DNA of 64,000 nt from the IMG/VR virus record IMGVR_UViG_3300035703_002708; one strand, written 5' to 3'. Position numbers and translations under genes: made by a program. The stretch is from a virus (taxonomy: Duplodnaviria > Caudoviricetes). Under the pieces are notes generated by a model that was not told the origin of the DNA, did no database searches, and saw nothing but the letters and a program-made list of their open reading frames with translations. Positions 3,281-60,027 of the stretch are shown here, piece by piece. The number at the start of each line of letters is the position of its first letter. Positions within the stretch are counted from its first letter, which is position 1.

Positions 3281-5581
3281 ATGTCTTGTCAATATAATTT
3301 TAGTCAATTTTCAGTAACAGGAGACTGTGAAAATAATAGTTCTGGAGGTTTTACGCTTTACTTATCCTCAACCTCGGAACCGATGAGTATTACTTGGTTG
3401 TTGCCAAATCCATGGCCACCCGGCATTGGAGGACCTCAAGTCGAGACCCCAATTTATAATGGAACTTACACTTATTTAGGAATTCCTGCAGGAACATATG
3501 TTTTTACTGTAAATGATAGTTGCGGAAGTCCTACCGCCACCACTGAAAATAATAGAGAAACTATAAGTATTACTATATCATCAGGTTCGTCATGCGTCAA
3601 TATAACAGATGTTGTAAATACCACTTGCGGTAATTCTGATGGTTCTTTATTGGCAACTGTTCAGAATACAAATGGTGCTGTTAATATCAAACTATATTTG
3701 GAGGATAATGATGGTAGAGTAGTCCCATTACCACAACCACCAGGTCAAGAAGATATTACGTTTATTAGGGAAGTTGAAATAGACAATGACAATTATTTAT
3801 TTGATAATCTTCCGTATGGAAAATATTATGTTATTGCTGATGATGGAGGAGGTTGTACAGGAAGAAGTGAAAGTGTCATAATATTACCATCGGTAGGTGT
3901 TAATTTCGGGACATATATTGTTAATGATGCGGACTGTGGTAATGTAGAAACAGGTGTTGGTAAGATTTTTATAACAGGTTTGACAGGCACTGGGCCCTAC
4001 ACTTATAGATGGGAAGGTGTTGGTACTACATTAGATTATTTGGTTAACACTGAACAACCACTTACAGGTACATCAATAACAGGATTAACCGCCGGTTTTT
4101 ATCAGGCTACAGTCACGGACTCGAATGGTTGTAGTTTTTCTGTGATATCACAAGTTATCGAAAAACTTCCTGTAAGTTTAGGCAGCGTTTCAACATCACC
4201 ACCCACATGTTTTGATAGTAACGGGAAAATAACAGTACAAGTACTTAATGGTACTCCACCATATAGATTTAGTATCCCATCTATTTCATTTACAGATATA
4301 AGTTATTCTCAAACATACGTTTTCAGTGGTTTACCCGGGGGTAACTACACTATAGTAATAACCGATGCGGCTCTCTGCAGTGTTTCAACAACGACACAAA
4401 TAAATCAATCCAATAGCTTTGCTTTGGGGCCGGTGACTATTATCCCACCAACTTGCGGAAATTCAAATGGTTCCATTTCGATAGGACTCGTTGGTAACAC
4501 AAATTCAAGTAGTTATTTATATTCTTTGAGTGGTGCTAATGGAGTAACTTTTTCGAGTGTAACATCAACTAACAACACATTTTCTAATTTATTACCTCAG
4601 AATTATTTTCTTACAATTACCGACAATATTTGTACCTATACTCAGTTAATAAACTTATCGTCCAATTCACTTTTTACCATATCAACACAAACTTCGGGTG
4701 CAACATGTGGTAATAATAACGGGAGTGTTACCATAACTAAATCAACAGGTGGTACAAGTACCTTTTCATATTGGATAGAGGATGTTGATGGGAATAACGA
4801 CCAAACATTGGACAACACACCACTGAGTTCTTGTACATTTTACAATTTGGCGCCTGGAAGTTATATTGCTTACGTAAGTGACAAAAATAGATGTCAAGAA
4901 CAAACCTTCTTTGAAATAAGTAACAGTGAACCTGTAAATTTTATTTTGATACCAACGGATTCCACAAATGGGTCAAACGGACAAATAATTGCAAATATCT
5001 ATCAAGGAACACCTCCTTTTACTTTGACATGGTCATCTAATGTCAATGGACAAACAGGTACAACTGTAACTAATTTATCTGCCGGTACCTATAGTCTCAT
5101 AGTGCAAGACAGTGCAGGTTGCGTTCAGTCCAATACGGTTACACTGTCAGGTACTTATAATGCAACAAATTTCTCATTGTTTAATGTATGTAATAGCGTG
5201 ATAAGTTCTACCGGACAATTTACAGAAAGAAGTTTATCAAAGATGTTAGTTGAGGGTTACATAGATTTGACTAGTGGATGTACAAATTGTCTTATGAATT
5301 CGGCAATATTTTCAGCGGTTACAACAGTTGCAGGAACTGGTTTTAGTCAGTCTTTCTATACCGCAACAACGTTAAACGATGTTCCTTCAGAATCAAATTG
5401 GGCGACAACTGTTCAGAATCTTCTTAGTGGTATAACAGGTGTAGGTACCGTTACAGTTAATACTACAGAAAACACAATTACATTAGACACTTCTTGTGAG
5501 GAAAGTACAAACGCATTGGCCAATCAAAATATTACCGTCGAACTTAAAATTGTTTATGACATAGATTGTGAAAGTTGTTAA
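3281..5581 (+). CDS. SprB-repeat, Cys/Thr-rich putative tail fibre/adhesin
   Basis: Several units of the form TC..xxG.I.v...gGTpPY.y.w....f.nL.aG.Y...vTD.ngC, matching SprB repeats by eye. Confidence 0.65.
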   Translation: MSCQYNFSQFSVTGDCENNSSGGFTLYLSSTSEPMSITWLLPNPWPPGIGGPQVETPIYNGTYTYLGIPAGTYVFTVNDSCGSPTATTENNRETISITISSGSSCVNITDVVNTTCGNSDGSLLATVQNTNGAVNIKLYLEDNDGRVVPLPQPPGQEDITFIREVEIDNDNYLFDNLPYGKYYVIADDGGGCTGRSESVIILPSVGVNFGTYIVNDADCGNVETGVGKIFITGLTGTGPYTYRWEGVGTTLDYLVNTEQPLTGTSITGLTAGFYQATVTDSNGCSFSVISQVIEKLPVSLGSVSTSPPTCFDSNGKITVQVLNGTPPYRFSIPSISFTDISYSQTYVFSGLPGGNYTIVITDAALCSVSTTTQINQSNSFALGPVTIIPPTCGNSNGSISIGLVGNTNSSSYLYSLSGANGVTFSSVTSTNNTFSNLLPQNYFLTITDNICTYTQLINLSSNSLFTISTQTSGATCGNNNGSVTITKSTGGTSTFSYWIEDVDGNNDQTLDNTPLSSCTFYNLAPGSYIAYVSDKNRCQEQTFFEISNSEPVNFILIPTDSTNGSNGQIIANIYQGTPPFTLTWSSNVNGQTGTTVTNLSAGTYSLIVQDSAGCVQSNTVTLSGTYNATNFSLFNVCNSVISSTGQFTERSLSKMLVEGYIDLTSGCTNCLMNSAIFSAVTTVAGTGFSQSFYTATTLNDVPSESNWATTVQNLLSGITGVGTVTVNTTENTITLDTSCEESTNALANQNITVELKIVYDIDCESC

Positions 5582-6325: not shown

Positions 6326-6393
6326 TTATAAATCATTAATCTTAGTATTTATAACTGAAAACTTGAATTTATTTTTTTACAATAATATTATAA

Positions 6394-8037
6394 ATGGCAA
6401 CTTCATATTTAAAATCCTGTTGTGACAATAGTGTTACATACACACTGACCGGTTTAGGGTCCGCTTTGTCAATCGGCAGCATCTATCATGTAGTAATACC
6501 TAATTATTTTTCGGGTTGTTCTACAGTAATCACATCCTCACAACTTCAACCAGGTTCACCATCCTATCCATCTTCTACTGCGGTTCTCACAGGTCCATAT
6601 GTAAATTGTTCAACTTGTACTTCAGCATATACATGCAATAGAATAACCGCAACAAGTGAATGTGATGTTATAACAATCGCTCCAATGTCTGTTCAATGTT
6701 CTCCTAATATAACTGCAGGCACAATAACAATGATTGTCACAGGAGGAACTCCTCCATACAAAATAAAATGGTCAACTGGACTTTTAGGGCCCACTCTATC
6801 AAATGCTGAGTACGGTGTTGCTTATGGTGTAACCGTAACTGATTATAGTTGGCCTGATGGAGGGCCGGATTATACTGCGGTTACAACTTGTTTCCTAGCA
6901 TTACCGACCTCAACACCAACACCAACACCAACTATAACGCCTTCACCTCCTCCTAATAATACAACAAATTTATGTCTTCAAGTAACTATAGGAAATAGAA
7001 CTTACACCTACAATTTCACCCCTTCCAATACAAGAATAAATAATAAATTTACATGGATTTACGGTCCATATGTTCTCTCATGGCAAACTTCACAAGGAAC
7101 ATCCTTTTGGCAAGTTCAAATGCCGATTGGAGATGGTGTAAATCCTATTATCTTAAGAAATTCATCAAATACCTCAGTTCCTTTAGGGTCATTTATTGCT
7201 TTTGGAAGTCCTGGTACTACAGCAGTCATGACAAATGGGGTTTGCGGTAACCCAATTATGACCTTACAAAATGCTACAATTACTCCACCAACTTGTCAAT
7301 CAACGCCATTAACAGGTTCTATTTATGTTAATATATTGAACGGTCAACCACCTGTCACATACTCCAAAGACGGTGGATTAACATCACAATCAAGTCCATT
7401 ATTTTCTAATTTACCGGCAGGAAGTTATACAATAACGGTACAAGATGGTAACTCAACTACATTACAACAACAGGTTACAATACCTCAACCTCCGGCAACC
7501 AACACATACACTTTAGATGTGGAAACTAACATAGTTCCTCAAAATCCTGGAAACAGTTTATTGAATTTTACTGTAAAAGTGAGGGACGTAAATGGAAACT
7601 TAGTCACAACACTTCCTACAAACACAATAATATCATTCAACATACAGGCTGAAAATATACTACAGACAACTGTGTTAGGGGGAGGTAACGTTATATCAAA
7701 TGTACAAATAAAAAAGAATAATATTACACAATCTATAAGTCCGATAACCAGCACGACAAACAGTGCAAATGCAGTATCTACGTGTCCACCTGCTCAAAGT
7801 ACTCTATACAGTACAGGTAATATAAAACAATATAATGGATTAACCATCTCAGGTAGTGATTCTATAACTGGAACTATTCAGGTCCAAGTAACCAAAACTG
7901 CGGTAGGTAATGTCTGTATCTTGAAATCCTTGGACACAGTCAGATTGATTAATAAACAAATTACAGGTTGTAGTTGTTGTAACATAAGTAATACATCATC
8001 AACATCTACACAGATGCAAACTAACGCGGTTAAATAA
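6394..8037 (+). CDS. Cys-rich SprB-repeat adhesin/fibre with Pro-Thr linker
   Basis: GGTPPYKIKW and FSNLPAGSYTITVQD SprB-like units; PTPTPTPT linker; TATTTAT motif at 6346. Confidence 0.55.
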   Translation: MATSYLKSCCDNSVTYTLTGLGSALSIGSIYHVVIPNYFSGCSTVITSSQLQPGSPSYPSSTAVLTGPYVNCSTCTSAYTCNRITATSECDVITIAPMSVQCSPNITAGTITMIVTGGTPPYKIKWSTGLLGPTLSNAEYGVAYGVTVTDYSWPDGGPDYTAVTTCFLALPTSTPTPTPTITPSPPPNNTTNLCLQVTIGNRTYTYNFTPSNTRINNKFTWIYGPYVLSWQTSQGTSFWQVQMPIGDGVNPIILRNSSNTSVPLGSFIAFGSPGTTAVMTNGVCGNPIMTLQNATITPPTCQSTPLTGSIYVNILNGQPPVTYSKDGGLTSQSSPLFSNLPAGSYTITVQDGNSTTLQQQVTIPQPPATNTYTLDVETNIVPQNPGNSLLNFTVKVRDVNGNLVTTLPTNTIISFNIQAENILQTTVLGGGNVISNVQIKKNNITQSISPITSTTNSANAVSTCPPAQSTLYSTGNIKQYNGLTISGSDSITGTIQVQVTKTAVGNVCILKSLDTVRLINKQITGCSCCNISNTSSTSTQMQTNAVK

Positions 8038-8061
8038 AATAAATTAAGATATTTATTATCG

Positions 8062-10317
8062 ATGGCATACATACTCAAAAATACTTCGGGCTTAATCAAT
8101 ACAAGAATTACTGACACAGGCAGAGAAAAAATGTCTCAAGGGAGTTTCAATATAAGTTATTTCCAAATAGGAGATAGTGAAATTTCTTACAATGTAATAT
8201 CAAATTTTGACCAAACTAATACTGTAATACTTGAACCCTCGTTTAACTCCGCAAACAGCGCACCAGTACCTTCGGCAAACGTTCAAAACATAAAGTACCC
8301 TTATTATGTTGACGGAAATGCCGGTTCTACTTATGGAATCCCATTTATGGATTCAGTGGTGTCAAATGTATATAATGTCGCACCAATGAGAGGTTTTTTC
8401 AGTGCCAATACATCAACACTACCAACTAATTGGTATGTTAGAACGGGTAGTGAATATGTTAAAACACCAAATTACGTTGCTGATTTAGGTTTTTTTGGAT
8501 TTAATCAGAATACTATAACACTTACAGAGGACACATGCAATACTGCAACAACATATACATTTTCAGCCGGAGATTTTATTACAATATATTATCAAACTGA
8601 CACCAATTGTAGTTGTACGTATACACCAGTTTCAGGAAATTGTGCCCCACCATATTACCCATATAATCCTTGTCCACCAACACCACCTACAGATAGAAAC
8701 TGTTTACTATCATTCCAAAGTTGTAATCCAATATTAACCTACAGAATTGTGGATGTTGCGGGTAATACATTAACATTGGATAGACCTGTTGTCGATTATA
8801 TACACATAGGTACAAGTGGTAATGTACGAGTAATGGTATATCCTTCAGGGATGACAAACTTCTATGATAGTTCAACACCTGAAGAACATTGGAATCAAGA
8901 TGTGTTAAATTTTCAATCTGCATGCGATATCGATTTATTTAATGTTAATGTTTGGAATATGAACATTCCTTGGAGTGAATCACCAGCCGGTTTAAACGGT
9001 TCGGTTTATAAGGATTACACAAACTTTGGTTCTGTTAACTATTTGGGAAGTAAGGAATATTTTGGTTATAGCAGTAGTACTGGTCAAACTGATAGTAGTT
9101 CTGTATATTATTATAATTCTTTAGGTGACCAAATAACTGTGACCGGAACTGAACAAAAGGCTATAGCGATAATTCATTATACAAATAACACAATAGATTT
9201 TGTTTATGGTGAAAAATTTGCCTTAGAACCATATGACCCTGAAAATACAACAAATACGGTTGGTATGGCTCGTAATTTTAGATTACATATACCCACTTTA
9301 CAATGGCATAAGTCTAGTGGGGAATGTTGTTCAGGACAAACATTTTATGTTGACCCTGCAGGTTTCGATGGACAAAATCTATTCGAAGAACATTACCTGA
9401 CCTCTAACCTCAATAACGATATGAATATACCTGGACACAGGTACTATCATTTGTGGGACACATATGCAAATCCTGACGGTAATCCAAGTAGAATAGGTAA
9501 GGTATTTCCTGATTTACATATAATAGTGATTGATGATGAAGAAATAATTGCCGCTTTATCATACAAATCAAATAGAAATTGGACATTACCGGCACCGAGA
9601 GTTGCGACTATAACACCAGATGGTGCCGAAACAGGTGTTCTAACAAATCAGAATGAATATATGTATATTACATATAGATTTTCAACCACTCTACCCTTCA
9701 CAAATTCATTACATTGTAATTACTATCAAAAGTTACAAGGTCCAAACCCAACATGTAATTCAGTTACTCAAAACGTTTCATTAACTTTTGGTAATGAGTT
9801 TGGTTGTTTACCTGACACTTCATATTATAGTGTATTCCAAATAATCTGTCAAAAAGTAAGCGGCGACACAAGACCTGACCCCAATGGTTGGAAAATAATA
9901 GATGTGACTTCACAGTTACCTTCCTCAACAATAAATCAAACGAATTTAACCGCAACAACTTTTGTGATAACTGATACTTTGTATAGTTCAGCACCGACTT
10001 ACAACTTGGGTAATTACATTAGTTTAACAACAGTTGGTACCACTGGAAATACTTTGAATTTCGGAGATGAATATTTCTTTTATGGTAACATAGAAACAGA
10101 AATTCAGGCGACCATATACGAAATGAGATATCTTTGTAACCTGAGTCAGAATGAGTTTACATATACTTCCAATCCAACATGGTCTGCCGGGACCACTTCA
10201 TACATAACTGAAATAGGTCTACTTGACTCAAACCGAAATTTGATGGCAATATCTAAATTACAATCACCAATTCAAAGACAAAGTATTCAACAATTCCTTG
10301 TCAAACTTGATTTCTAA
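8062..10317 (+). CDS. Virion structural (tail/baseplate-associated) protein
   Basis: 751 aa; N-term LTDTGREKM..G.FNISYFQIGDSE and C-term YITEIGLLD...LMAISKL.SPI patterns I associate with phage tail proteins; TATTTAT at 8050. Confidence 0.55.
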   Translation: MAYILKNTSGLINTRITDTGREKMSQGSFNISYFQIGDSEISYNVISNFDQTNTVILEPSFNSANSAPVPSANVQNIKYPYYVDGNAGSTYGIPFMDSVVSNVYNVAPMRGFFSANTSTLPTNWYVRTGSEYVKTPNYVADLGFFGFNQNTITLTEDTCNTATTYTFSAGDFITIYYQTDTNCSCTYTPVSGNCAPPYYPYNPCPPTPPTDRNCLLSFQSCNPILTYRIVDVAGNTLTLDRPVVDYIHIGTSGNVRVMVYPSGMTNFYDSSTPEEHWNQDVLNFQSACDIDLFNVNVWNMNIPWSESPAGLNGSVYKDYTNFGSVNYLGSKEYFGYSSSTGQTDSSSVYYYNSLGDQITVTGTEQKAIAIIHYTNNTIDFVYGEKFALEPYDPENTTNTVGMARNFRLHIPTLQWHKSSGECCSGQTFYVDPAGFDGQNLFEEHYLTSNLNNDMNIPGHRYYHLWDTYANPDGNPSRIGKVFPDLHIIVIDDEEIIAALSYKSNRNWTLPAPRVATITPDGAETGVLTNQNEYMYITYRFSTTLPFTNSLHCNYYQKLQGPNPTCNSVTQNVSLTFGNEFGCLPDTSYYSVFQIICQKVSGDTRPDPNGWKIIDVTSQLPSSTINQTNLTATTFVITDTLYSSAPTYNLGNYISLTTVGTTGNTLNFGDEYFFYGNIETEIQATIYEMRYLCNLSQNEFTYTSNPTWSAGTTSYITEIGLLDSNRNLMAISKLQSPIQRQSIQQFLVKLDF

Positions 10318-39243: not shown

Positions 39244-39520
39244 GTTATTGATTTTATTCACGATGGAGGGGTGCCCTTTCTGTCAAATTATGAAAGACAG
39301 ATTGAACGAAGAGGAGATAGAATATTATGAAAGGGATATCAACATTTATCAAGAAGAATACGATATGTTCAAGGAAATCACCGAGAATGATTTTGTGCCA
39401 GCATTTATGATTGTCGAATCACCCGATGAGGAACCTTTCACACATTTATTTGCACCTGAAAGAGATTACAACGAAATAGAAGAAGGTATTGGTATTATCA
39501 AAGAACATTTCAGTCGTTAA
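39236..39520 (+). CDS. Glutaredoxin/NrdH-like redoxin
   Basis: GCPFC, FVPA. Confidence 0.8.
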   Translation: MDKLLILFTMEGCPFCQIMKDRLNEEEIEYYERDINIYQEEYDMFKEITENDFVPAFMIVESPDEEPFTHLFAPERDYNEIEEGIGIIKEHFSR

Positions 39521-39534
39521 GGTATTTATGTCAT

Positions 39535-39879
39535 ATGGACATAATAGTAGATAAACCACAGTTAGTAAGAGTAGTTTTACTGTATCTTAATAAGAATTTT
39601 GGAAATTTAACTCCTAAGACTAGTTCAAAATTTCCTGACTCAGTATTTTACGTAAACTCAGATAACGAGATTCTTATGGAATACAATAAGGAAACTGAAC
39701 GTGTTTATATTCATTACGACCAAATTTGGTCAAAATTCGAATCGTTATTTCACCTTAATCCTGTGGATATTCTATCAATTATGAAAGTTTGGTTGGAAGA
39801 GGATTACAAATTGGGGAATTCAAAACTTCGTATCCTCCCAAAGCACTCTGTTAACCATTGGAAGAGACTTACAAATTGA
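39535..39879 (+). CDS. Hypothetical protein with N-terminal leader
   Basis: MDIIVDKPQLVRVVLLYLNK; TATTTAT at 39523. Confidence 0.6.
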   Translation: MDIIVDKPQLVRVVLLYLNKNFGNLTPKTSSKFPDSVFYVNSDNEILMEYNKETERVYIHYDQIWSKFESLFHLNPVDILSIMKVWLEEDYKLGNSKLRILPKHSVNHWKRLTN

Positions 39880-39909
39880 AGTAAGAAAAATAACATTTTA
39901 GTATATTAT

Positions 39910-39938
39910 AAACCCACCCCCATTAAGGTGGGTTTTTT
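39910..39938 (+). terminator. Intrinsic terminator
   Basis: AAACCCACC-loop-GGTGGGTTT followed by T run. Confidence 0.75.
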
Positions 39939-40000
39939 GTTTTCAGATATTTATAGGTAAGTCCTAAAAATGAAAACTAAACCTAAAAATATACTAACAG

Positions 40001-40690
40001 ATGAAATCCTTTATCTTACTATTGTTATTTTTACTTCCTTCATTAATCCAAGGTCAAAGTTATACCATAAGTGGTAATTATACTTATGGAATTTCAGTTT
40101 TTGATTTGGATAAAACATCCTTTTATGATTTAAGAAACGAAAGAAGATTTACACCAGGGTATTCCTATGGTCTGTCAATTGGAAAGTTTTACAGGTCAGG
40201 ATATTATCAAAAAAAGTTTTGGGGTGTGAAACTCGAATTCAACAAGTTTCAGTATGCGCAGAACATCAGGCTAGTTCCCGAATCAATTCCACTGACCTCA
40301 CTCAAATTTATTGAGAAACGAATACAAGTAGATGGTTATTCAATTACACCAACCGCTTGTTATTACCCATCTGTAGGACAAAGTTTATTTGTTGAGTTCG
40401 GACCATCTTTTAATCACATATCTCAACAAACACAATCAACAGTATCAAATACAGTAGGTTTTGACTCACCATTAGTGCCCTATGAGTTTAAAAAAAATTT
40501 TCTTAGTTTATATTTGAGGTCTGGAGTATATTTTAATTTGACTGATTGGTTAGGTTTTAATATCGCTCTATTTTCAAAAACTAATATCACACCTGTTGTA
40601 GAAGATAACACATTTAGAAGTTATTTTTTTGGTGTTGATGGTGGTTTGACCTTTAGAATTGGAAAATGGAAAAGTTCTCGTACTCGTTAA
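40001..40690 (+). CDS. Outer-membrane beta-barrel protein (PorT/OmpA-barrel-like)
   Basis: Signal peptide, alternating amphipathic strands, terminal FFGVDGGLTFRIG. Confidence 0.6.
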   Translation: MKSFILLLLFLLPSLIQGQSYTISGNYTYGISVFDLDKTSFYDLRNERRFTPGYSYGLSIGKFYRSGYYQKKFWGVKLEFNKFQYAQNIRLVPESIPLTSLKFIEKRIQVDGYSITPTACYYPSVGQSLFVEFGPSFNHISQQTQSTVSNTVGFDSPLVPYEFKKNFLSLYLRSGVYFNLTDWLGFNIALFSKTNITPVVEDNTFRSYFFGVDGGLTFRIGKWKSSRTR

Positions 40691-42060
40691 TACTAATTTT
40701 ATTGTCAGTATTTTGTTTTGGACAAATACCTGGTCCATCAACTAATTGGTATTTCGGAGCTTTTGCAGGAATTACATTTAATTCAGGAAGTCCTGTTGCG
40801 CTTACCAACGGAGTTTTAAACACTACAGAAGGGGTTGCGACAATATCTGATAACTCAGGTAATTTACTATTTTATACAGATGGTGTAACTGTTTATAACA
40901 GGTTTCATGCGGTTATGACAAATGGATTGGGTTTGTTTGGAGATGCTTCATCCACACAATCGGCAATCATAGTTCAGAAACCTAATGAACCAAACATATA
41001 TTATATTTTTACATCAGATAATGATGTCGGACCAAATGGTATTTGTTATTCTACCGTTGATATGAATGCTGGATTTGGATTAGGTGCCGTAATAACAAAA
41101 AACATACAACTAAAAACACCCTCATGTGAAAAACTATGTGCTGTCAGAAATTGTAACAATCAAGACATATGGGTTATTTCAAAGGATTGGGGAAACAATA
41201 CATTTACCGCTTGGTCAGTAAATTCTTCGGGTGTTGGAGTTATCACATCTTGGTCAAATGCCGGTAGTGTTATAAATGGTGTTTCACAATCATCTTATGG
41301 ACAATTGAAAGCATCGCCTAATGGTAGAAAATTAGCCGCCTGTCATTATGGAACCACCACAGGAGGAATCAATAAAGTAGAATTATACGACTTTGACCCA
41401 GCGACAGGATATGTTTCAAATGGAGTTACTTTACATACTCAATTAGGTGTGTATGGTGTTGAATTCTCACCTGATGGTAAAGTATTATACGCTGGCACCA
41501 ATCAAGGATTACTTATGCAGTGGAACTTATGTGCGGGAACAATACCTCAAATACAATCATCAAGAACAACCATATCAAACGCAGGACCATTTATCGGTTC
41601 AATTCAAAGAGGACCTGATGGGAAGATATATGTTGCAAGAAATAATGATTCGTTATCTGTTATCAATAATCCAAATGTCGTAGGGTTGGGATGTAATTAT
41701 ACCAATTTGTCATTACCTCTTGCAAATAGGTCAAGTAGAATGGGACTACCAAATTTTGCCTCTTTTTATATTCAACAACAATTCGTTTTACCTGACCCCA
41801 CCATTAATTGCACTACCGCCAGTTTCTCAATTCCAATCTCTCAAAACACAGATTGTTTGTCTCAAAATGTTCAATATACTTACCTGTGGGACTTTGGAGA
41901 TGGGACAACATCACCTCAACAAAACCCAAATCACACATATTTATTATCAGGGGTGTATAATGTTTCAGTTACCATTACAGGACCTTGTACATCTACCACA
42001 ATAAACAAAGTTGTTAACATTCCACCTGGAGGTATAACAGTATCAGTATATACAAATTAA
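40666..42060 (+). CDS. Secreted beta-propeller-like + PKD domain protein
   Basis: Signal peptide; NWYFG..AGITF, EGVATISD..GNLLFYTDG, SSTQSAIIV typical of Bacteroidota T9SS cargo; WDFGDG PKD. Confidence 0.75.
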   Translation: MEKFSYSLILILLSVFCFGQIPGPSTNWYFGAFAGITFNSGSPVALTNGVLNTTEGVATISDNSGNLLFYTDGVTVYNRFHAVMTNGLGLFGDASSTQSAIIVQKPNEPNIYYIFTSDNDVGPNGICYSTVDMNAGFGLGAVITKNIQLKTPSCEKLCAVRNCNNQDIWVISKDWGNNTFTAWSVNSSGVGVITSWSNAGSVINGVSQSSYGQLKASPNGRKLAACHYGTTTGGINKVELYDFDPATGYVSNGVTLHTQLGVYGVEFSPDGKVLYAGTNQGLLMQWNLCAGTIPQIQSSRTTISNAGPFIGSIQRGPDGKIYVARNNDSLSVINNPNVVGLGCNYTNLSLPLANRSSRMGLPNFASFYIQQQFVLPDPTINCTTASFSIPISQNTDCLSQNVQYTYLWDFGDGTTSPQQNPNHTYLLSGVYNVSVTITGPCTSTTINKVVNIPPGGITVSVYTN

Positions 42061-42062
42061 TT

Positions 42063-42629
42063 ATGAAAAAAATAATCTTTACACTTATTCTTACAATCTT
42101 ATCTGTTGTAGGATATTCGCAAGTACCAACCCCCAATCCTGCAAATGGTGATTTTTATTGTCCTAATGATGTTCAAGTATATGGTGACCAAGTTATCGAC
42201 CCAAACGCCACTTATTCATTTTCAATCACACCAGCATTTCCTTTTAACGTAATTTCAGGTGGAGACCAAATTGAGGTTACTTGGACAACACCAGGTGTTT
42301 ATACAATTGAAATTACAAAAACAATCGGTGAGTGTTCTTCTGTTGCGACCGCACAAATTACGGTTTATCCTCCGACAATTCCTATTGTAATTAACGATGC
42401 GTTATGTCAAGGAAACGGAACAATAAACTTGACAGCAAATCCTTTGGGAACAAATCCTGTTTTTGGTGGTATAGGTGTAACAGGAAGTGTGTTTAACGCA
42501 GCAGGGTTAGCACCTGGCAACTATCCAATCACTTTTACATCCATTGATGCAAATGGTTGTCCTATGTCAGGAAATGGTTTAATTGTGATAACTCCTCCTC
42601 CTACCACACCTATAATCTATACTGACTAA
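42063..42629 (+). CDS. Secreted Ig-like/PKD-like protein
   Basis: Signal peptide; VTWTTPGVYTI, GNYPITF Ig-like strands. Confidence 0.65.
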   Translation: MKKIIFTLILTILSVVGYSQVPTPNPANGDFYCPNDVQVYGDQVIDPNATYSFSITPAFPFNVISGGDQIEVTWTTPGVYTIEITKTIGECSSVATAQITVYPPTIPIVINDALCQGNGTINLTANPLGTNPVFGGIGVTGSVFNAAGLAPGNYPITFTSIDANGCPMSGNGLIVITPPPTTPIIYTD

Positions 42630-43243
42630 TGAAAATACTGGGGGTATTAAATTCATTTACAGCGAAGGTATTACTGATATTTACAGTAATATTTATACTT
42701 TCTTCTGCTGTTCCTGTAGGTGAGGACCCACAAGTAATTAACCTTTGTGATACAACTTTCGTATTAAAAAAATACACGGTATATCCTCCATCAGGATATT
42801 TTAGTTCTTGGTTTGTAAATCCCGAAGCAACTATTATTGGCTCGTCAACTGAAAACACATTAACAATCAAATGGACTGAACCAGGAAACTATACAATTAT
42901 CGCTCAGTTCTCAAATGGTAGATGTGTAAGTAATAGTAAATTGGATGTTATTGTTGAAGGTTGCCCTGATTTTACGTTGTATATACCAAACACATTTACT
43001 CCTGATGGTGATAACATAAACGATGTATTTGGTGCATACGGAACCGAAATTGAAGAGTTCAGTATGGAAATATATAACAGGTGGGGAGAACTCATATTTG
43101 TATCTAACGCACTTGAATATAGATGGGATGGATACTATAAAGGTAACCTTTGCCAACAAGATGTCTATGTATTCAAAATAAGATATAAAGCAAGAAACTT
43201 CGTATCCAAAGCAATCTACGGTAGAGTTCTTCTACTTAATTAG
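42629..43243 (+). CDS. Protein with T9SS type B C-terminal sorting domain (gliding-motility-associated CTD)
   Basis: YIPNTFTPDGDNINDVF...IYNRWGELIF...WDG...DVYVFKI matches the CHU_C/TIGR04131 pattern. Confidence 0.85.
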   Translation: MKILGVLNSFTAKVLLIFTVIFILSSAVPVGEDPQVINLCDTTFVLKKYTVYPPSGYFSSWFVNPEATIIGSSTENTLTIKWTEPGNYTIIAQFSNGRCVSNSKLDVIVEGCPDFTLYIPNTFTPDGDNINDVFGAYGTEIEEFSMEIYNRWGELIFVSNALEYRWDGYYKGNLCQQDVYVFKIRYKARNFVSKAIYGRVLLLN

Positions 43244-43950
43244 AAAACTACAATATCTTCAATCCTATTTTTTATTAACCAAGGCTTTGATTCAAATGGA
43301 TTAAGTAAGTCCTCCAAGATATCATAAGTGTTGATTATTTCTCTTAACTCTTTGATAATATTTTCTGTGTAAAATACATCCAATAGTAAATCAAAGATAT
43401 AATCTTCAGATAAAAAAGATTTATCCAAACTTAACATCAATTTGAAGTCCTCGATAAATTGTTCTTTATTATGTTTTATCTCTATGGAGTTGGCATTAGT
43501 GATATTAAAAATATGATTTGATACATACTCACCAAAATAAAACTCAAATCTACCCATATCCAATCCATAACCGTGAGGAAATTCTGATGTGATGATGGTT
43601 TGCTCATAACCAAATGTTCTATCTTGACCATCGATATTATTTTGTGAGTATATCGGTCTTTCAGTGTCGTAATATTTAAACCAAGTTGGGTCCAACTTAG
43701 GTTTTGTGTTATAAGTTATTAAATCAATAACGTTAAATGTTTTGATATATGCGTTTGGGTAATCTTTCAAAAATTGTTCTTTGATTGGTCCCAAATCTAC
43801 AACCTCTGTAAGTGGTGTTTCTCCTTTAACAACAAAGAATGGTCCGCAATCTGAAACTTCTATAATTGTTTCAGAGTCAAACTTTTTAAGGATATAATCC
43901 GCAAATAAATTAACACAACCTCTTTTTGATTTTGAATCTATGTATCTCAT
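43240..43950 (-). CDS. Hypothetical protein, weak resemblance to MetK (SAM synthetase) fold
   Basis: ADYIL...E...VVKGE....VD resembles the MetK N-domain; C-terminal PW; catalytic GHPD/GAGDQG absent. Confidence 0.4.
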   Translation of the reverse strand: MRYIDSKSKRGCVNLFADYILKKFDSETIIEVSDCGPFFVVKGETPLTEVVDLGPIKEQFLKDYPNAYIKTFNVIDLITYNTKPKLDPTWFKYYDTERPIYSQNNIDGQDRTFGYEQTIITSEFPHGYGLDMGRFEFYFGEYVSNHIFNITNANSIEIKHNKEQFIEDFKLMLSLDKSFLSEDYIFDLLLDVFYTENIIKELREIINTYDILEDLLNPFESKPWLIKNRIEDIVVF

Positions 43951-43999
43951 AACTTTTTTTAGAATTGATAAAGAAAATAAATGATACTCTAAACACTAT

Positions 44000-44028
44000 T
44001 TGACATTTATCACATCATTTTTTATATT
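44000..44028 (+). promoter_or_regulatory. -35/-10 type promoter
   Basis: TTGACA-N17-TATATT. Confidence 0.6.
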
Positions 44029-44046
44029 TTCTCAAAACTTATTTAT

Positions 44047-44322
44047 ATGACAATAGCAGTCGAGGTAGAAGATGTTCTTTGGAGTATGACATCTTACGAG
44101 AAAAAAGAAATGTTTGAAGAACTATTATCTGAGTTAGATATCAATTGGGTTATGCAATGTCTGAACGACGCAAATATCACAGCAAAACTTTCTAAATCTG
44201 TTGATAAAAATCGTGATGATGAATACAATAACAAAGTTTTATCTTTACTTAACAATAAGTTCAAATTAACAAACGAGGAAGAGGAAATGATTTATAAAAT
44301 CTCAGATAGGATTAATCCTTAA
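44047..44322 (+). CDS. Hypothetical protein
   Basis: 91 aa ORF after promoter. Confidence 0.55.
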   Translation: MTIAVEVEDVLWSMTSYEKKEMFEELLSELDINWVMQCLNDANITAKLSKSVDKNRDDEYNNKVLSLLNNKFKLTNEEEEMIYKISDRINP

Positions 44323-45383
44323 AGTTCCAAGTAGTCAAAGAATGAATCGTTGATATACTCTATTACTTTTCTATAGTCAGGATAATCAGAAACTCTCAAT
44401 CTCAAACATTCATATTCGTCGCTATAATCTCTTGTCTCTTCTACTAAACTAAAATAGTTGGTGAAGTCACTTAAATTAGTACCATAACCAATATGCGATT
44501 CAATAAAAGCATGAATTAAGTCCACGAAATTTTCTGTAATGTCTATTCTATAAATATTTTTTTTATTTTCATCAGAACCCCAAACACCTTTTCCGATACC
44601 AACTGATTCCAATTCTTTTCTTACAGATTTATAGTATTCATCTGACAAAGCACCGTTATAAGCATTAGAATGGCAACTCTTTAAAGAAATTCTGAAATCA
44701 TCAGAGAAAACTTCATCTTTCAAAAACTTAAATGTGTTGGAATCTTTCAACATCTCGGCAACATTTTTCTCTGAAAATCGTAAAGTATTTTCATCTCCAT
44801 CCAAACTTGCCAAATTAGGTATAAGAGTATTATGAATTTTATAAGAAAAATTATTAATATTCAAAGTGTCAAAATTTTGTGAAATTATATTACAAAGTTT
44901 TTTGAAATTTTCTTTTGTTAGAACTTTTATAACATCTTCATGTACATCCTGTGTTGTATCGTAATAAGGTTCAAAACTATCTTCTCTTAATATATTATAG
45001 GCTAAATCATAAGATGATGGACCACTTCTTGTCTCGTCGCCAAAACAAAATAACTGAGCCAAGTCTTCCATATCTTTTAAAACCAAAAATATTCTACCAT
45101 TTTCATATGAAATATTTTTCCACAAACCTCTTGCAACATACTCTATGAATTTATTTCTTGTTTCGGGATTATTAAACAAATATTTATCAAACATATTTTG
45201 AATATAGTTGTATTCAAAACTCCTCTCTCCAGGAGAAATCAATTCTATCAAACCCTTTTTCTCAACTAAGTTCAAAAATCTTCTTATAGTGTCCCACTCC
45301 TCTTCATCTTTATTACCAACAAAAACGGTAAGAAACTCTAAATCATTATTATTGAATCTATCTATTAAGTTTTTTAATGCCAT
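44319..45383 (-). CDS. Hypothetical acidic protein
   Basis: 354 aa; TATTTAT upstream (45390-45396, minus). Confidence 0.6.
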   Translation of the reverse strand: MALKNLIDRFNNNDLEFLTVFVGNKDEEEWDTIRRFLNLVEKKGLIELISPGERSFEYNYIQNMFDKYLFNNPETRNKFIEYVARGLWKNISYENGRIFLVLKDMEDLAQLFCFGDETRSGPSSYDLAYNILREDSFEPYYDTTQDVHEDVIKVLTKENFKKLCNIISQNFDTLNINNFSYKIHNTLIPNLASLDGDENTLRFSEKNVAEMLKDSNTFKFLKDEVFSDDFRISLKSCHSNAYNGALSDEYYKSVRKELESVGIGKGVWGSDENKKNIYRIDITENFVDLIHAFIESHIGYGTNLSDFTNYFSLVEETRDYSDEYECLRLRVSDYPDYRKVIEYINDSFFDYLEL

Positions 45384-45401
45384 AATAACATAAATATAAT
45401 A

Positions 45402-45430
45402 AAAAAGGGGATTTTTGGTCCCCTCTGTTT
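45402..45430 (-). terminator. Intrinsic terminator
   Basis: GGGGA...TCCCC hairpin with A run giving U tract on minus strand. Confidence 0.55.
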
Positions 45431-45456
45431 AATTCTTAACCCCACTCAATATTTAA

Positions 45457-55559: not shown

Positions 55560-56000
55560 GTGAAAAGGTTTATTGTCATTTTGTCAGTTATTTTGGGTTT
55601 TATGACATCTTGTCAGAAAGAGGACCCTATTGACCCTCCGACATATAATCAAATCAATCAACCACCAACTACTGATATTCCTAAATTTGCTGGCTCCACT
55701 TGGGTAATATATAAGTTTCAACCCTTATATTTCGTGACCGACCCAGAGTTAGTCACCGATACTTTGATATTCATCAATAACACCGAACTAAAATATAATG
55801 GTGTTTCTTGTGAATACTCTTTTTACCCAAGTGGATATCTGTGGTATTTCGAACTAAAACAAACTCCGAGATTTATTGGAAGTATAAATGCGTTTTTAAG
55901 TGAAGGACCAATCAATTATGGTGAGATTTTGGCACAAGAATATACAAATGTTTACAACCGAAACCAAAAATGGTTGGTTTGGATGAAAAAAGTAAATTGA
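55560..56000 (+). CDS. Lipoprotein with Bacteroidota surface-export-like signal
   Basis: Signal peptide II ending FMTS-C followed by QKEDP; GTG start. Confidence 0.7.
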   Translation: MKRFIVILSVILGFMTSCQKEDPIDPPTYNQINQPPTTDIPKFAGSTWVIYKFQPLYFVTDPELVTDTLIFINNTELKYNGVSCEYSFYPSGYLWYFELKQTPRFIGSINAFLSEGPINYGEILAQEYTNVYNRNQKWLVWMKKVN

Positions 56001-58558: not shown

Positions 58559-59014
58559 ATGAAACCCCTCCGAAAATATTTCAGTTTGTTGGGGACACTT
58601 CTTGGACTTTTTCTACCATTATTTTTAGGATTAATTGCAGGGTTCGACAAACCTTCATTTTCAAGTTATTATTTTACAGATGCCAAACTATTTTTTATTG
58701 TTAGTTTGACAATCATATCTTTAAGTTTTGTTACATTATCCAAAACTTGGTTCATACCCTGTTTATCACTTATCGTACTAACATACTTCAATTGTCACGA
58801 TTTTAGTGAGATACATCAATTCGCGGCTCATTTATTTTTTGCTAGTTCAACTTATCTAATACTCAAAGACAAAAGGTTCAGGGGATTTGGATTTTTGATA
58901 TTACTTGCGACTCCGATTGTATTTTTCTCTATTTACTATTTTGAACTAATCTCGGTTTTACTTATTTCAATTTTTCACTTATTTTATATGCGAAGAATTC
59001 TAAAAACAAAATGA
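58559..59014 (+). CDS. Multi-pass membrane protein
   Basis: About five hydrophobic segments; contains IHQFAAHLFF. Confidence 0.65.
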   Translation: MKPLRKYFSLLGTLLGLFLPLFLGLIAGFDKPSFSSYYFTDAKLFFIVSLTIISLSFVTLSKTWFIPCLSLIVLTYFNCHDFSEIHQFAAHLFFASSTYLILKDKRFRGFGFLILLATPIVFFSIYYFELISVLLISIFHLFYMRRILKTK

Positions 59015-60027
59015 CTATGAGATTAATACTTCTATTTTTATTATTTCCAATATTTTTAAAATCTCAACTAATACCTGAGGTCGGATACAAACTACAACTT
59101 ACTAATCAATTAGGTGTAATAAGACAATTAATTATCGCATTTGATAGTACAACATCAGATGGATTTGATTTGTGTTGTGATGCGGGAACTTTTGGAGGAC
59201 CAAACTCATTTTTAGGTATATATACACTTCTGAATGGAAACACATATTCGATTATGGCTTATGATAAACTGATTTCTGACAGAAGTATTAGTTTATATAC
59301 AACAGCAAACCCTGACCTTATTGAATTTACAATAAATGTAGTTGATACAATAGGTTATGAAAAAACAATAGTATCCTTATCTGATTCAGTATTTCCTGAC
59401 CAAAAGTTCAACTTTCCTTATACCTGTCAAGGTCCGATAACAGGAAATAGATTTACATTTCATACATCAGCACCTGTCAAATTAAATGTGATTAATGGTT
59501 GTGAGAGCGATAGCGGTGGTAGGGTAATCATCAATAATCCTAATGACAAATGGTCAGAAGAACTACGTTTGTATGGTGAATTATTTCAAAATGTAGATGA
59601 TACAATCATAACAAATCTTCAAAGCGGTTCTTACCAATATAAATGGTATAATCAAACAGGAGAACAAACTATTGATTTTGAAGTTAATAACAATCCATTT
59701 GATTTTGATTTGTTATTACCCAATAATTATGTATGGATAGACGACCCTGGTATCATACCACAATTATTCATAACGGGAAATTATGACCAAATAATGTGGA
59801 ACTTTGGAGATGGAAGTGAACCGAGATATGACGATTTGAACCCTGTTTATTATTATTCAGAGGTTGGACAATATACATTGGCTGTGACTGTAACGTCAGG
59901 CAATTGCACAAAAACCATTCAAGAAGTCATCACCGTAGATGATATTTTTGGATTTCCTAACATAAAATCAAAAAAAAATGATTATCCATTCTATTATGGA
60001 TTGGATGGTCGATTACACAAAAAATGA
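59011..60027 (+). CDS. Secreted PKD-domain protein
   Basis: Signal peptide; WNFGDG and PVYYYSEVGQYTL PKD; ends YYGLDGRLHKK. Confidence 0.7.
   Translation: MTMRLILLFLLFPIFLKSQLIPEVGYKLQLTNQLGVIRQLIIAFDSTTSDGFDLCCDAGTFGGPNSFLGIYTLLNGNTYSIMAYDKLISDRSISLYTTANPDLIEFTINVVDTIGYEKTIVSLSDSVFPDQKFNFPYTCQGPITGNRFTFHTSAPVKLNVINGCESDSGGRVIINNPNDKWSEELRLYGELFQNVDDTIITNLQSGSYQYKWYNQTGEQTIDFEVNNNPFDFDLLLPNNYVWIDDPGIIPQLFITGNYDQIMWNFGDGSEPRYDDLNPVYYYSEVGQYTLAVTVTSGNCTKTIQEVITVDDIFGFPNIKSKKNDYPFYYGLDGRLHKK

Follow-up and report, generated by a model that had tools for sequence, protein, structure and literature searches.

A phage cassette that resembles a split Bacteroidota adhesin and may be displayed through the host type IX secretion system

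Why should a phage carry, side by side, a small outer-membrane barrel and three further exported proteins, the last of which ends in a sorting domain of the bacterial type IX secretion system (T9SS)? This question is raised by positions 40001-43243 of a 64-kb stretch (64,000 nt, here called the window) of the IMG/VR virus record IMGVR_UViG_3300035703_002708, where four co-directional, coupled open reading frames (ORFs), g1 to g4, lie on the + strand, neighbours overlapping or standing 2 nt apart. We propose that this cassette is an autonomous, moron-like unit of a freshwater Bacteroidota phage, encoding a miniature surface adhesin in three exported pieces together with an accessory barrel, a reading to which we assign a probability of roughly 0.6. 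By this means the phage would probably use the host T9SS to equip the infected cell with a binding protein of phage origin, as domain content and modelling suggest.

The proposal starts from g4 (42629..43243, 204 residues), which consists of a signal peptide, an immunoglobulin (Ig)-like domain (residues 28-112, 42710..42964), predicted to accept a strand from g3, and a type B T9SS C-terminal sorting domain (CTD; residues 119-204 of 204, 42983..43240); we refer to it as the anchor or carrier. TIGR04131 matches with 52.2 bits against a cut-off of 35, over profile positions 3-75 of 85, and PF13585 (CHU_C) with 55.6 bits against a cut-off of 27 (E 6e-15). The CTD stands at the extreme C-terminus, and a Sec signal peptide is present by inspection at the N-terminus. 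Five CTD motifs, A to E, are required for secretion of SprB (PMC12618676). Alignment A5, of 26 relatives of g4, retains the motifs PNxFTPxGD..N, (I/V)(Y/F)NRWGE, W(D/N)G, DVY.(Y/F) and G.(V/I).L(I/L), which in narrower form read PNxFTPxGD..N, IYNRWGE, WDG, DVYVF and GRVxLL. There are 114 homologues, and the only solved chain matched by the family profile is that of GhpA (9FLP), over its last ~100 residues (E 1e-11). By its profile matches g4 ends in a genuine type B T9SS sorting domain.

The second gene, g2 (40666..42060, 464 residues), encodes a signal peptide, a seven-bladed beta-propeller (~residues 20-370) and a PKD domain (~375-455). PKD_4 is matched at E 3.6e-11 (43.4 bits against a cut-off of 27), and the AlphaFold2 (AF2) model, with a predicted local distance difference test score (pLDDT) of 87, finds as its best match in the Protein Data Bank 1L0Q, a YVTN propeller followed by PKD (E 1.8e-16); a PKD domain above cut-off on a seven-bladed fold is what one expects of a propeller-plus-PKD surface module. 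More than 2345 homologues of g2 were retrieved, of which the best 120, at 51-96% identity, are nearly all ~460 residues long, or ~375 where PKD is missing. The propeller tip is the most conserved part of the cassette, with 60-96% identity across phages and branches shorter than those of the bacterial copies, while a fold search of BFVD with g2 returned generic propellers only, at no more than 16% identity. Between tip and carrier lies g3 (42063..42629, 188 residues), the putative stalk, with a signal peptide and two Ig-like (SprB-repeat/PKD-like) domains. Its Pfam matches to PKD are all sub-threshold, and its Ig-like character follows from homology: cross-matches relate its first domain to the N-domain of g4, and its second half aligns at 30-36% identity with SprB-type repeats of the bacterial relatives. 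The original prediction, made from the letters of the DNA, had named a propeller-like plus PKD protein, an Ig-like protein and a small protein with a type B CTD, the last to be checked against TIGR04131, and all three assignments hold.

How does this trio relate to its cellular relatives? In species-representative genomes g2 has at least 565 Bacteroidota matches at 38-53% identity, and the bacterial propeller forms the N-terminus of long ORFs (median 892 residues, some above 2,100) that carry a type B CTD in the same polypeptide in 60 of 85 complete cases. Such proteins, for example one of 1,173 residues at locus L032, are collinear with the cassette, their N-terminus aligning with g2, their SprB-like middle with g3 and their C-terminus with g4. 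That bacteria hold these domains in one chain, and that in the phage they are split in three with a CTD on the last piece only, had both been claimed beforehand and agree with this collinearity, by which the cassette corresponds to a bacterial adhesin of one chain that has been divided. When the propeller sequences are placed in a maximum-likelihood tree, all 17 split copies of phage type fall into a single clade (Shimodaira-Hasegawa-like approximate likelihood ratio test, SH-aLRT, 99), sister (SH-aLRT 100) to three giant proteins from metagenome-assembled genomes of freshwater Bacteroidia and Flavobacteriales. Under midpoint rooting the split clade is nested among bacterial sequences, the root, and hence the direction of transfer, being presumed. 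Recent capture from a host, for which composition and phylogeny had been proposed as checks, is ruled out, because the phage copies form a single and internally diverse clade; the GC content of the cassette (0.33-0.35), which is that of the window, agrees. Stand-alone propellers of ~375-410 residues without PKD or CTD also occur in Pontibacter (L052, L064, L077, L082, L087, L088 and L093), several of them ending ...RSANV(K/R), and these may be an independent bacterial split form.

If the adhesin is split, what would hold the pieces together? Both g2 and g3 end in a short tag. That of g2 (...GGITVSVYTN, 42034..42057) has pLDDT below 50 at residues 457-464 and is disordered in the monomer model, and that of g3 (TPPPTTPIIYTD, 42591..42626) is the predicted donor strand, its residues 177-188 forming the interface with g4 in three of three runs. 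In C-termini that vary elsewhere, these tags are conserved best. Among the best 120 g2 homologues the last four residues are IYKQ in 25, VYTN in 21, IYTN in 17, INHN in 9, IYKE in 8 and LNSN in 7, with related forms besides, and the tags of other phages read P-I-x-H-N or IYKQ. They agree within one cassette and vary between cassettes and phage lineages: VYTN with IYTD in the window, IYTN with IFTN in L009, INLN with IQIN in L017, ISHN with IQHN and IIHN in L018, and IEHN with INHN in L021. Matching within and differing between cassettes suggests that the tagged proteins of a cassette have a partner in common, which that cassette itself encodes. In the bacterial single-chain relatives the position of the tag is taken by the strand leading into the next repeat domain.

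The complex of mature g3 and mature g4 was predicted in three runs with three controls, on alignments of our own making, and scored 0.72 (runs 0.72, 0.72 and 0.75), the best of the controls giving 0.00. In calibration a score of 0.72 is reached by 58 of 80 solved complexes and by two of 110 mismatched pairs, counts that hold only roughly because our own alignments were used. The runs have at least 93% of their contacts in common, pLDDT of the partners is at least 83, and residues 177-188 of g3 lie against residues 47-54 and 90-105 of g4; the g3 tag is predicted to insert as a beta-strand into the Ig-like N-domain of the carrier. Multimer modelling of all four products, also with host T9SS components, had been suggested at the outset, and of this the g3-g4 pair was covered, a prediction that speaks for binding of the two.

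What sets the four genes apart as a unit? Upstream, a terminator-like hairpin with T-run (39910..39945, + strand; stem of 9 pairs, 5 of them G-C, loop of 8, then TTTGTTTT) closes, as an intrinsic-terminator-like element by its sequence, the preceding thioredoxin/glutaredoxin gene block. It is followed by the motif TATTTAT (39948..39954, + strand), 47 nt 5' of g1 and a candidate promoter element of the phage; on the downstream side, the stop codon of g4 is faced by a convergent gene of the other strand. Hairpin and motif on one side and the convergent gene on the other therefore make the four genes a self-contained unit. In the whole window TATTTAT is not over-represented (44 copies, 36 expected); of its 28 + strand copies, 12 precede a + strand gene start by no more than 70 nt, where 1.5 are expected by area, a start-proximal count that tops all same-composition heptamers in the window. 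These 12 sites lie 6-53 nt before + strand starts, for example at 6346, 8050, 18736, 27357, 33320 and 39523, and further at 39948, 44040, 46258, 50592, 52002 and 53417, so that a role as phage promoter element is plausible. By inspection, on which all signal peptide assignments rest, cleavage is predicted before Gln in g1 (...LIQG|QSY), g2 (...FCFG|QIP) and g3 (...VGYS|QVP), and in g4 the n-region is longer and leads into a hydrophobic core (...ILSSA|VPV) kept in the 26 relatives; g2 to g4 have sites of signal peptidase I (SPI) type before Gln or Val, with no Cys at +1 and hence no lipobox. ORF coordinates, hairpin and signal peptides bear out what the original prediction had stated of the layout, namely four overlapping or adjacent genes behind a terminator and TATTTAT, each with a signal peptide. 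Just upstream, contigs of two sequencing runs join 39529 to 39912 or 39933, some relatives thus being without the 114-residue gene at 39535-39879, and L014 has three tandem paralogues of this gene after the cassette; its absence in some relatives and its tandem copies in L014 place the cassette in a flexible region.

The genomic setting is that of a phage, as had been supposed: ORFans form long one-strand arrays in the window, together with genes for an SbcC-like nuclease, a GIY-YIG endonuclease, methylases, a sigma factor, thioredoxin and glutaredoxin, and viral contigs of IMG/VR, 21-261 kb in length, carry homologous cassettes. The 12 database relatives of g1 (69-98% identity) stand, wherever their context is readable, in this same cassette, whose genes keep their lengths and which again follows the thioredoxin-glutaredoxin block, and four-gene synteny with equal lengths is found at L002, L003, L005, L013 and L014 and at two loci listed without DNA. 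The ORFs keep the same lengths at 69-87% amino-acid identity. Comparison of the window with L002 and L005 gives a proportion of nonsynonymous differences (pN) far below that of synonymous ones (pS), no frame disruption, and a ratio of nonsynonymous to synonymous rates (dN/dS) of 0.08-0.16 in all four genes, a rough value because dS, at 1.2-2.3 in several pairs, is near saturation. Near-identical DNA is present in 16 sequencing runs of about a dozen studies, mostly freshwater. Among 50,697 deposited phage genomes, blastn and tblastn found no match to the cassette, g2 or g3, and only the CTD region of g4 gave matches, to one fragment and to two huge phages that are uncultured; a scan of viral contigs with g2 alone returned no loci, the scan with an alignment did, and PHROGs and PADLOC hold no family for any of the four proteins. 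Contigs of 200-400 nt, 90-99% alike, from the X19 metatranscriptome and two further runs (probably DNA) cover parts of g1 to g4 and neighbours; because the libraries may contain DNA, they show neither transcription, strand nor level. A contig joint that skips 39478-45455, with 31 letters on its shorter side, was not used.

Phages hold the cassette in several forms. Apart from the four-gene form (L013 and L014, the latter of 261 kb), there are cassettes of g2, g3 and g4 without the barrel (L009, L015, L016, L017 and L020), reordered ones with extra tagged subunits (two in L018, one in L021), then the carrier, then g2, phages with g2 alone (L019, L023-L025), and crAss-like phages with a pair of g3-like and g4-like genes (L010 and L011). 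The extra secreted subunits of L018 (2479-6410) and L021 (2683-6356) end in P/L-I-x-H-N and precede the CTD carrier, g2 coming last, so the number of tagged subunits per carrier varies. In L010 (83 kb) the pair, at 7462-9660 with a tag ...AINSN and a type B CTD, is directly followed by genes for a small membrane/coiled-coil protein and for an endolysin of the Peptidase_M15 family, with ring and muzzle genes nearby; a 232-residue secreted protein upstream of it ends ...LLLNKN. Downstream of barrel-less cassettes there is a conserved secreted protein of ~258 residues (L009 8683-9465, L015 8998-9771, L016 8975-9751), whose end ...YDL(S/A)GR(L/V)(I/L)... resembles a piece of a type A CTD motif, a putative likeness.

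How might such a cassette work? All four products would first be exported by Sec. The g3 tag would insert as a strand into the Ig-like N-domain of g4, as predicted, and the g2 tag would dock likewise into the homologous first Ig domain of g3, so as to build in the periplasm a complex of tip, stalk and anchor. Since the T9SS moves folded proteins (PMC9251779), an assembly made in the periplasm could pass on a single CTD, and that of g4 would carry the folded complex through the host SprA translocon. Proteins with a type B CTD bind PorP/SprF-like barrels for secretion and surface anchorage, and type B cargo that have no shuttle gene beside them rely on one encoded elsewhere, which serves several such orphan cargo (PMC9143113, PMC12618676). 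No PorP/SprF was found by phmmer, a search of limited reach, when 850 ORFs from the window and from 27 phage loci related to it were searched, nor in the family matches of 52 window ORFs. Given that these searches found none and that g1 is not one either, g4 is expected to use a shuttle of the host, which would retain the complex on the cell surface. The barrel g1 would be inserted in the outer membrane by the host beta-barrel assembly machinery (BAM), as a lineage-specific extra and not as the shuttle of the CTD. The likely purpose would be to alter what the infected cell sticks to, or what sticks to it, be it adhesion to particles or neighbouring cells, or the masking or displacement of T9SS-dependent phage receptors.

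A more general proposition, whose chances we put at somewhat short of even, is that the T9SS exports proteins without a CTD when these plug a short C-terminal strand tag into the Ig domain of a small CTD carrier, and that Bacteroidota phages use this modular plug-in to furnish infected cells with binding heads that can be exchanged, each carrier taking one to three tagged subunits and the tags (YTN, x-H-N, YKQ) being specific to the phage lineage.

Several points weigh against display of an assembled adhesin. We infer secretion, assembly and surface display of the cassette proteins, and anchoring would presuppose a host with a matching orphan shuttle. The complex score is the model's own confidence and not a measurement, and it concerns the g3-g4 pair only; the model of g1 is of moderate confidence (pLDDT 62), and the saturation of dS blunts the estimate of selection. 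The phages with g2 alone have no CTD partner within ~5 kb, and there the tag may bind something else. Finally, in a literature search of incomplete coverage no description was found of donor-strand, piggyback, hitchhiking or carrier-mediated export of CTD-less partners by the T9SS. The biological role, whether adhesion, receptor masking or exclusion, we likewise infer.

Could the same parts serve another end? The complex, or g4 alone, might occupy or block the PorP/SprF shuttles, the SprA translocon or the gliding track of the host, so that host type B adhesins and T9SS-dependent phage receptors vanish from the surface, with superinfection exclusion and gliding arrest as the outcome and propeller display as secondary. 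This idea draws strength from the dependence of type B cargo on specific shuttles, one serving several orphan cargo (PMC12618676), for which a phage CTD could compete, from the lack of a shuttle gene of its own in the window and the 27 phage loci searched, and from phage resistance through gliding and T9SS mutations in Flavobacterium, as reported in PMC9804748. Yet conservation is highest in the tip, at 60-96% identity across phages, which suits binding better than ballast, and jamming needs neither stalk nor matched tags. Competition for the shuttle or gliding track is thus a serious alternative, compatible with display, to which we give a clearly smaller chance; display of a binding head is preferred because the tip is the most conserved part and its family is N-terminal in hundreds of Bacteroidota surface adhesins.

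It is also conceivable that nothing assembles at all, that the gene split has left three independent secreted or periplasmic proteins, and that the predicted interface is an in-silico artefact of the packing of homologous Ig domains. One pair only was modelled, Ig folds are often given an extra edge strand by programs that predict structure, and some phages have g2 alone. However, three of three controls scored 0.00, the tags are the best-conserved part of variable C-termini and match within cassettes, gene order is tightly coupled with overlapping stops and starts, and all parts are under purifying selection, which together make independent proteins improbable.

What, then, is the barrel? g1 (40001..40690, 229 residues) is secreted and modelled by AF2 as eight long strands (pLDDT 62, predicted template modelling score 0.63, a moderate confidence), and with this model Foldseek returns as top matches Ail, OmpA-TM, OmpW, NspA and OprG (probability 1.00, E 1e-5 to 5e-4). 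Signal peptide and eight-stranded antiparallel barrel are those of a small outer-membrane barrel, model confidence being moderate, and in this respect the original prediction of an outer-membrane beta-barrel stands. No family of Pfam, NCBIfam or PHROGs matches g1. The profile of its family, run against 1.8 billion representatives, gave seven matches only, the weaker ones members of PF13568 (OMP_b-brl_2); g1 alone does not match PF13568, and the proteins retrieved by its family profile (E 2.6e-10 to 5.8e-4) do. Its language-model neighbours are the OMP_b-brl and OMP_b-brl_2 clusters. By these profile-level ties g1 is probably a distant OMP_b-brl_2-like protein; in the cassette it is a lineage-specific accessory.

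The barrel had further, by implication, been taken for the cognate PorP/SprF-type partner of the CTD, and this identification fails. Neither PorP_SprF (PF11751) nor TIGR03519 matches g1 at E up to 1 in Pfam and NCBIfam, and hhalign of the g1 family with a verified PorP_SprF that stands beside a bacterial homologue (L086, PF11751 E 7e-59) gives a probability of 0.2%. A PorP/SprF is expected to be a large FadL-like barrel of about 300-370 residues, and the verified PorP_SprF neighbours of bacterial homologues have 339-366, compared with 229 residues and eight strands in g1. Nor is g1 constantly linked to the type B cargo gene, being missing in most phage cassette variants that keep g4. Profiles, hhalign, size, strand number and inconstant linkage together rule it out as a PorP/SprF shuttle. 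A PorT-like (PorT/SprT) identity found no support: no NCBIfam model matched g1 or its distant relatives, the presence of a PorT-specific model in the library being unconfirmed. For any phage-borne barrel adjoining a type B cargo gene, the label of PorP/SprF shuttle needs testing first.

Could g1 nevertheless be the phage's own anchor for g4, in place of a host shuttle? It lies directly upstream of g2, translationally coupled, and the four genes travel together in the lineage. Against this stand the lack of any sequence or profile similarity to PorP/SprF, the eight-stranded fold like that of Ail, OmpA and OmpW, the absence of g1 from L009, L015-L017, L020, L018, L021, L010 and L011, whose CTDs keep the same motifs, and the occurrence of its nearest outside relative, P0128, alone in another phage, so that we hold this role for g1 to be slightly less probable still than a lack of assembly. 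P0128 (E 1e-24) is encoded at L012 2322-2966 beside a gp32-like gene, and its standing alone suggests that small outer-membrane barrels are independent phage accessory genes. With g1 absent from most phage versions, the barrel is a lineage-specific addition, and the core of the cassette is g4 with at least one CTD-less partner.

Might the proteins be parts of the virion, fibres or receptor-binding proteins, rather than a display on the infected cell? In L010 the g3/g4-like pair has ring, muzzle and lysis genes as neighbours, a cluster of AlphaFold DB that shares the propeller of g2 is named after a tail-tip J domain, and other proteins of the window, without signal peptides, carry SprB repeats. 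Virions, however, assemble in the cytoplasm, and here each of the four products starts with a Sec signal peptide, g4 bearing in addition a T9SS sorting domain that is under selection; the neighbours of the cassette in the window (thioredoxin, glutaredoxin, GIY-YIG nuclease, methylases) are not structural genes. Because of the export signals on all four products a virion role is unlikely, indeed very improbable. Least tenable of all, and already contradicted, is a decaying or recently captured host fragment without phage function: the closest cellular relatives are indeed Bacteroidota adhesins, but relatives keep the same four intact ORFs at equal lengths and 69-87% identity with dN/dS of 0.08-0.16, which excludes the decay, loss of selection and absence from relatives that the original prediction had named as its refutation, and the copies form one diverse phage clade on many viral contigs of 21-261 kb, share the composition of the phage and recur as near-identical DNA in 16 runs.

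Elsewhere in the window, two large cysteine-rich proteins without signal peptides (3281-5581 and 6394-8037) match the SprB repeat at E 8.5e-7 and 5e-6, the first having a Y_Y_Y domain as well; these are probably virion fibres with the same type of repeat as the gliding adhesins of the host. At 58559-60027 a small multi-pass membrane protein (151 residues) is directly followed by a 338-residue protein with a signal peptide and PKD, which has no recognisable CTD and may be a second secreted module. A 146-residue ORF at 55560-56000, with a lipoprotein-like N-terminus (MKRFIVILSVILGFMTSCQ), lies just upstream of a Ro60-like gene.

The T9SS is thought to require a sorting domain on every cargo. If display of tagged pieces on a carrier is true, subunits that ride on a separate CTD protein would amount to a new rule of cargo selection, testable by the deletion of four residues. 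The cassette is moreover a widespread accessory module, with more than 2,000 homologues of the tip, many viral contigs and near-identical DNA in freshwater samples of about a dozen studies, and its likely effect, a re-surfacing of the infected cell, matters for superinfection exclusion, for attachment to particles and for what becomes of infected lake Bacteroidota. New here are the test for selection, the phylogeny of the phage clade, the finding that the barrel is neither PorP/SprF nor core, the matching of tags within cassettes, and the controlled prediction of the g3 tag in the Ig domain of g4.

With which known systems may the cassette be compared? Small outer-membrane barrels, such as Lom of lambda and other eight-stranded barrels of Ail/OmpX type, are carried by phages. 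Like them, g1 is a small phage-encoded barrel in the position of an accessory gene, and its model resembles the folds of Ail, OmpX, OmpA-TM and OmpW; unlike them, it has no Pfam match to Ail/Lom, its distant relatives are Bacteroidota OMP_b-brl_2 proteins (PF13568), and it is grouped in one unit with T9SS cargo. The surface-layer protein of Methanosarcina in 1L0Q, a cell-surface protein, shares with g2 the tandem order of YVTN beta-propeller and PKD; at 15% identity and from an archaeon, it allows no function to be transferred. In GhpA, the grappling hook of Aureispira (9FLP), the C-terminal ~100 residues match g4 where its CTD sits, yet GhpA is a single chain of 5898 residues, and the aligned region comprises only the stretch before the CTD and the CTD itself.

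In assembly mode the closest likeness is to the donor-strand assembly of Bacteroidota type V pili (FimA/Mfa1; PMC4789730): the C-terminal beta-strand of one subunit would, by prediction, fill or prolong the Ig-like fold of the subunit after it, so that a surface fibre is made from separately exported parts. Type V pilins, however, are lipoprotein precursors whose N-terminal strand is removed by proteolysis before polymerisation (PMC4789730), whereas the cassette has SPI-type signal peptides and no lipobox, would have a fixed stoichiometry of tip, stalk and anchor, and would be exported via the T9SS. With no Cys at +1 in g2 to g4 it is not a member of the type V system, though it may work alike; the likeness is one of assembly mode, and no sequence relationship is claimed.

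As to domains, the cassette comes closest to the SprB/SprF-type adhesins of Flavobacterium johnsoniae and to PG1035/PorP of P. gingivalis (PMC9143113, PMC12618676), with which it has in common a Sec signal peptide and a TIGR04131 CTD, SprB-like or Ig repeats, a tip found in hundreds of Bacteroidota adhesins, and the expected anchoring on a PorP/SprF-like shuttle. It differs in being phage-encoded, in its three polypeptides with a CTD on the last only, in its matched C-terminal tags and in the lack of an adjacent PorP/SprF gene, the last of which it shares with the orphan cargo of F. johnsoniae and with the majority of bacterial loci examined. Among phages, the Bacteroidota 'Cryophage' carries T9SS cargo with type A CTDs, enzymes and a PA14 protein, which, as Bellas et al. 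(2020, PMC7468147) proposed, hijack host secretion and have a part in superinfection exclusion or competition. In both cases genes of a Bacteroidota phage bear the sorting domains of the host T9SS; those of Cryophage are single-chain, type A and strongly variable among phage variants, whereas the cassette is type B, non-enzymatic, split, tagged and highly conserved. Phage-encoded T9SS cargo is thus already known in its type A form (PMC7468147), and what the present cassette may add is export by the T9SS on a separate carrier.

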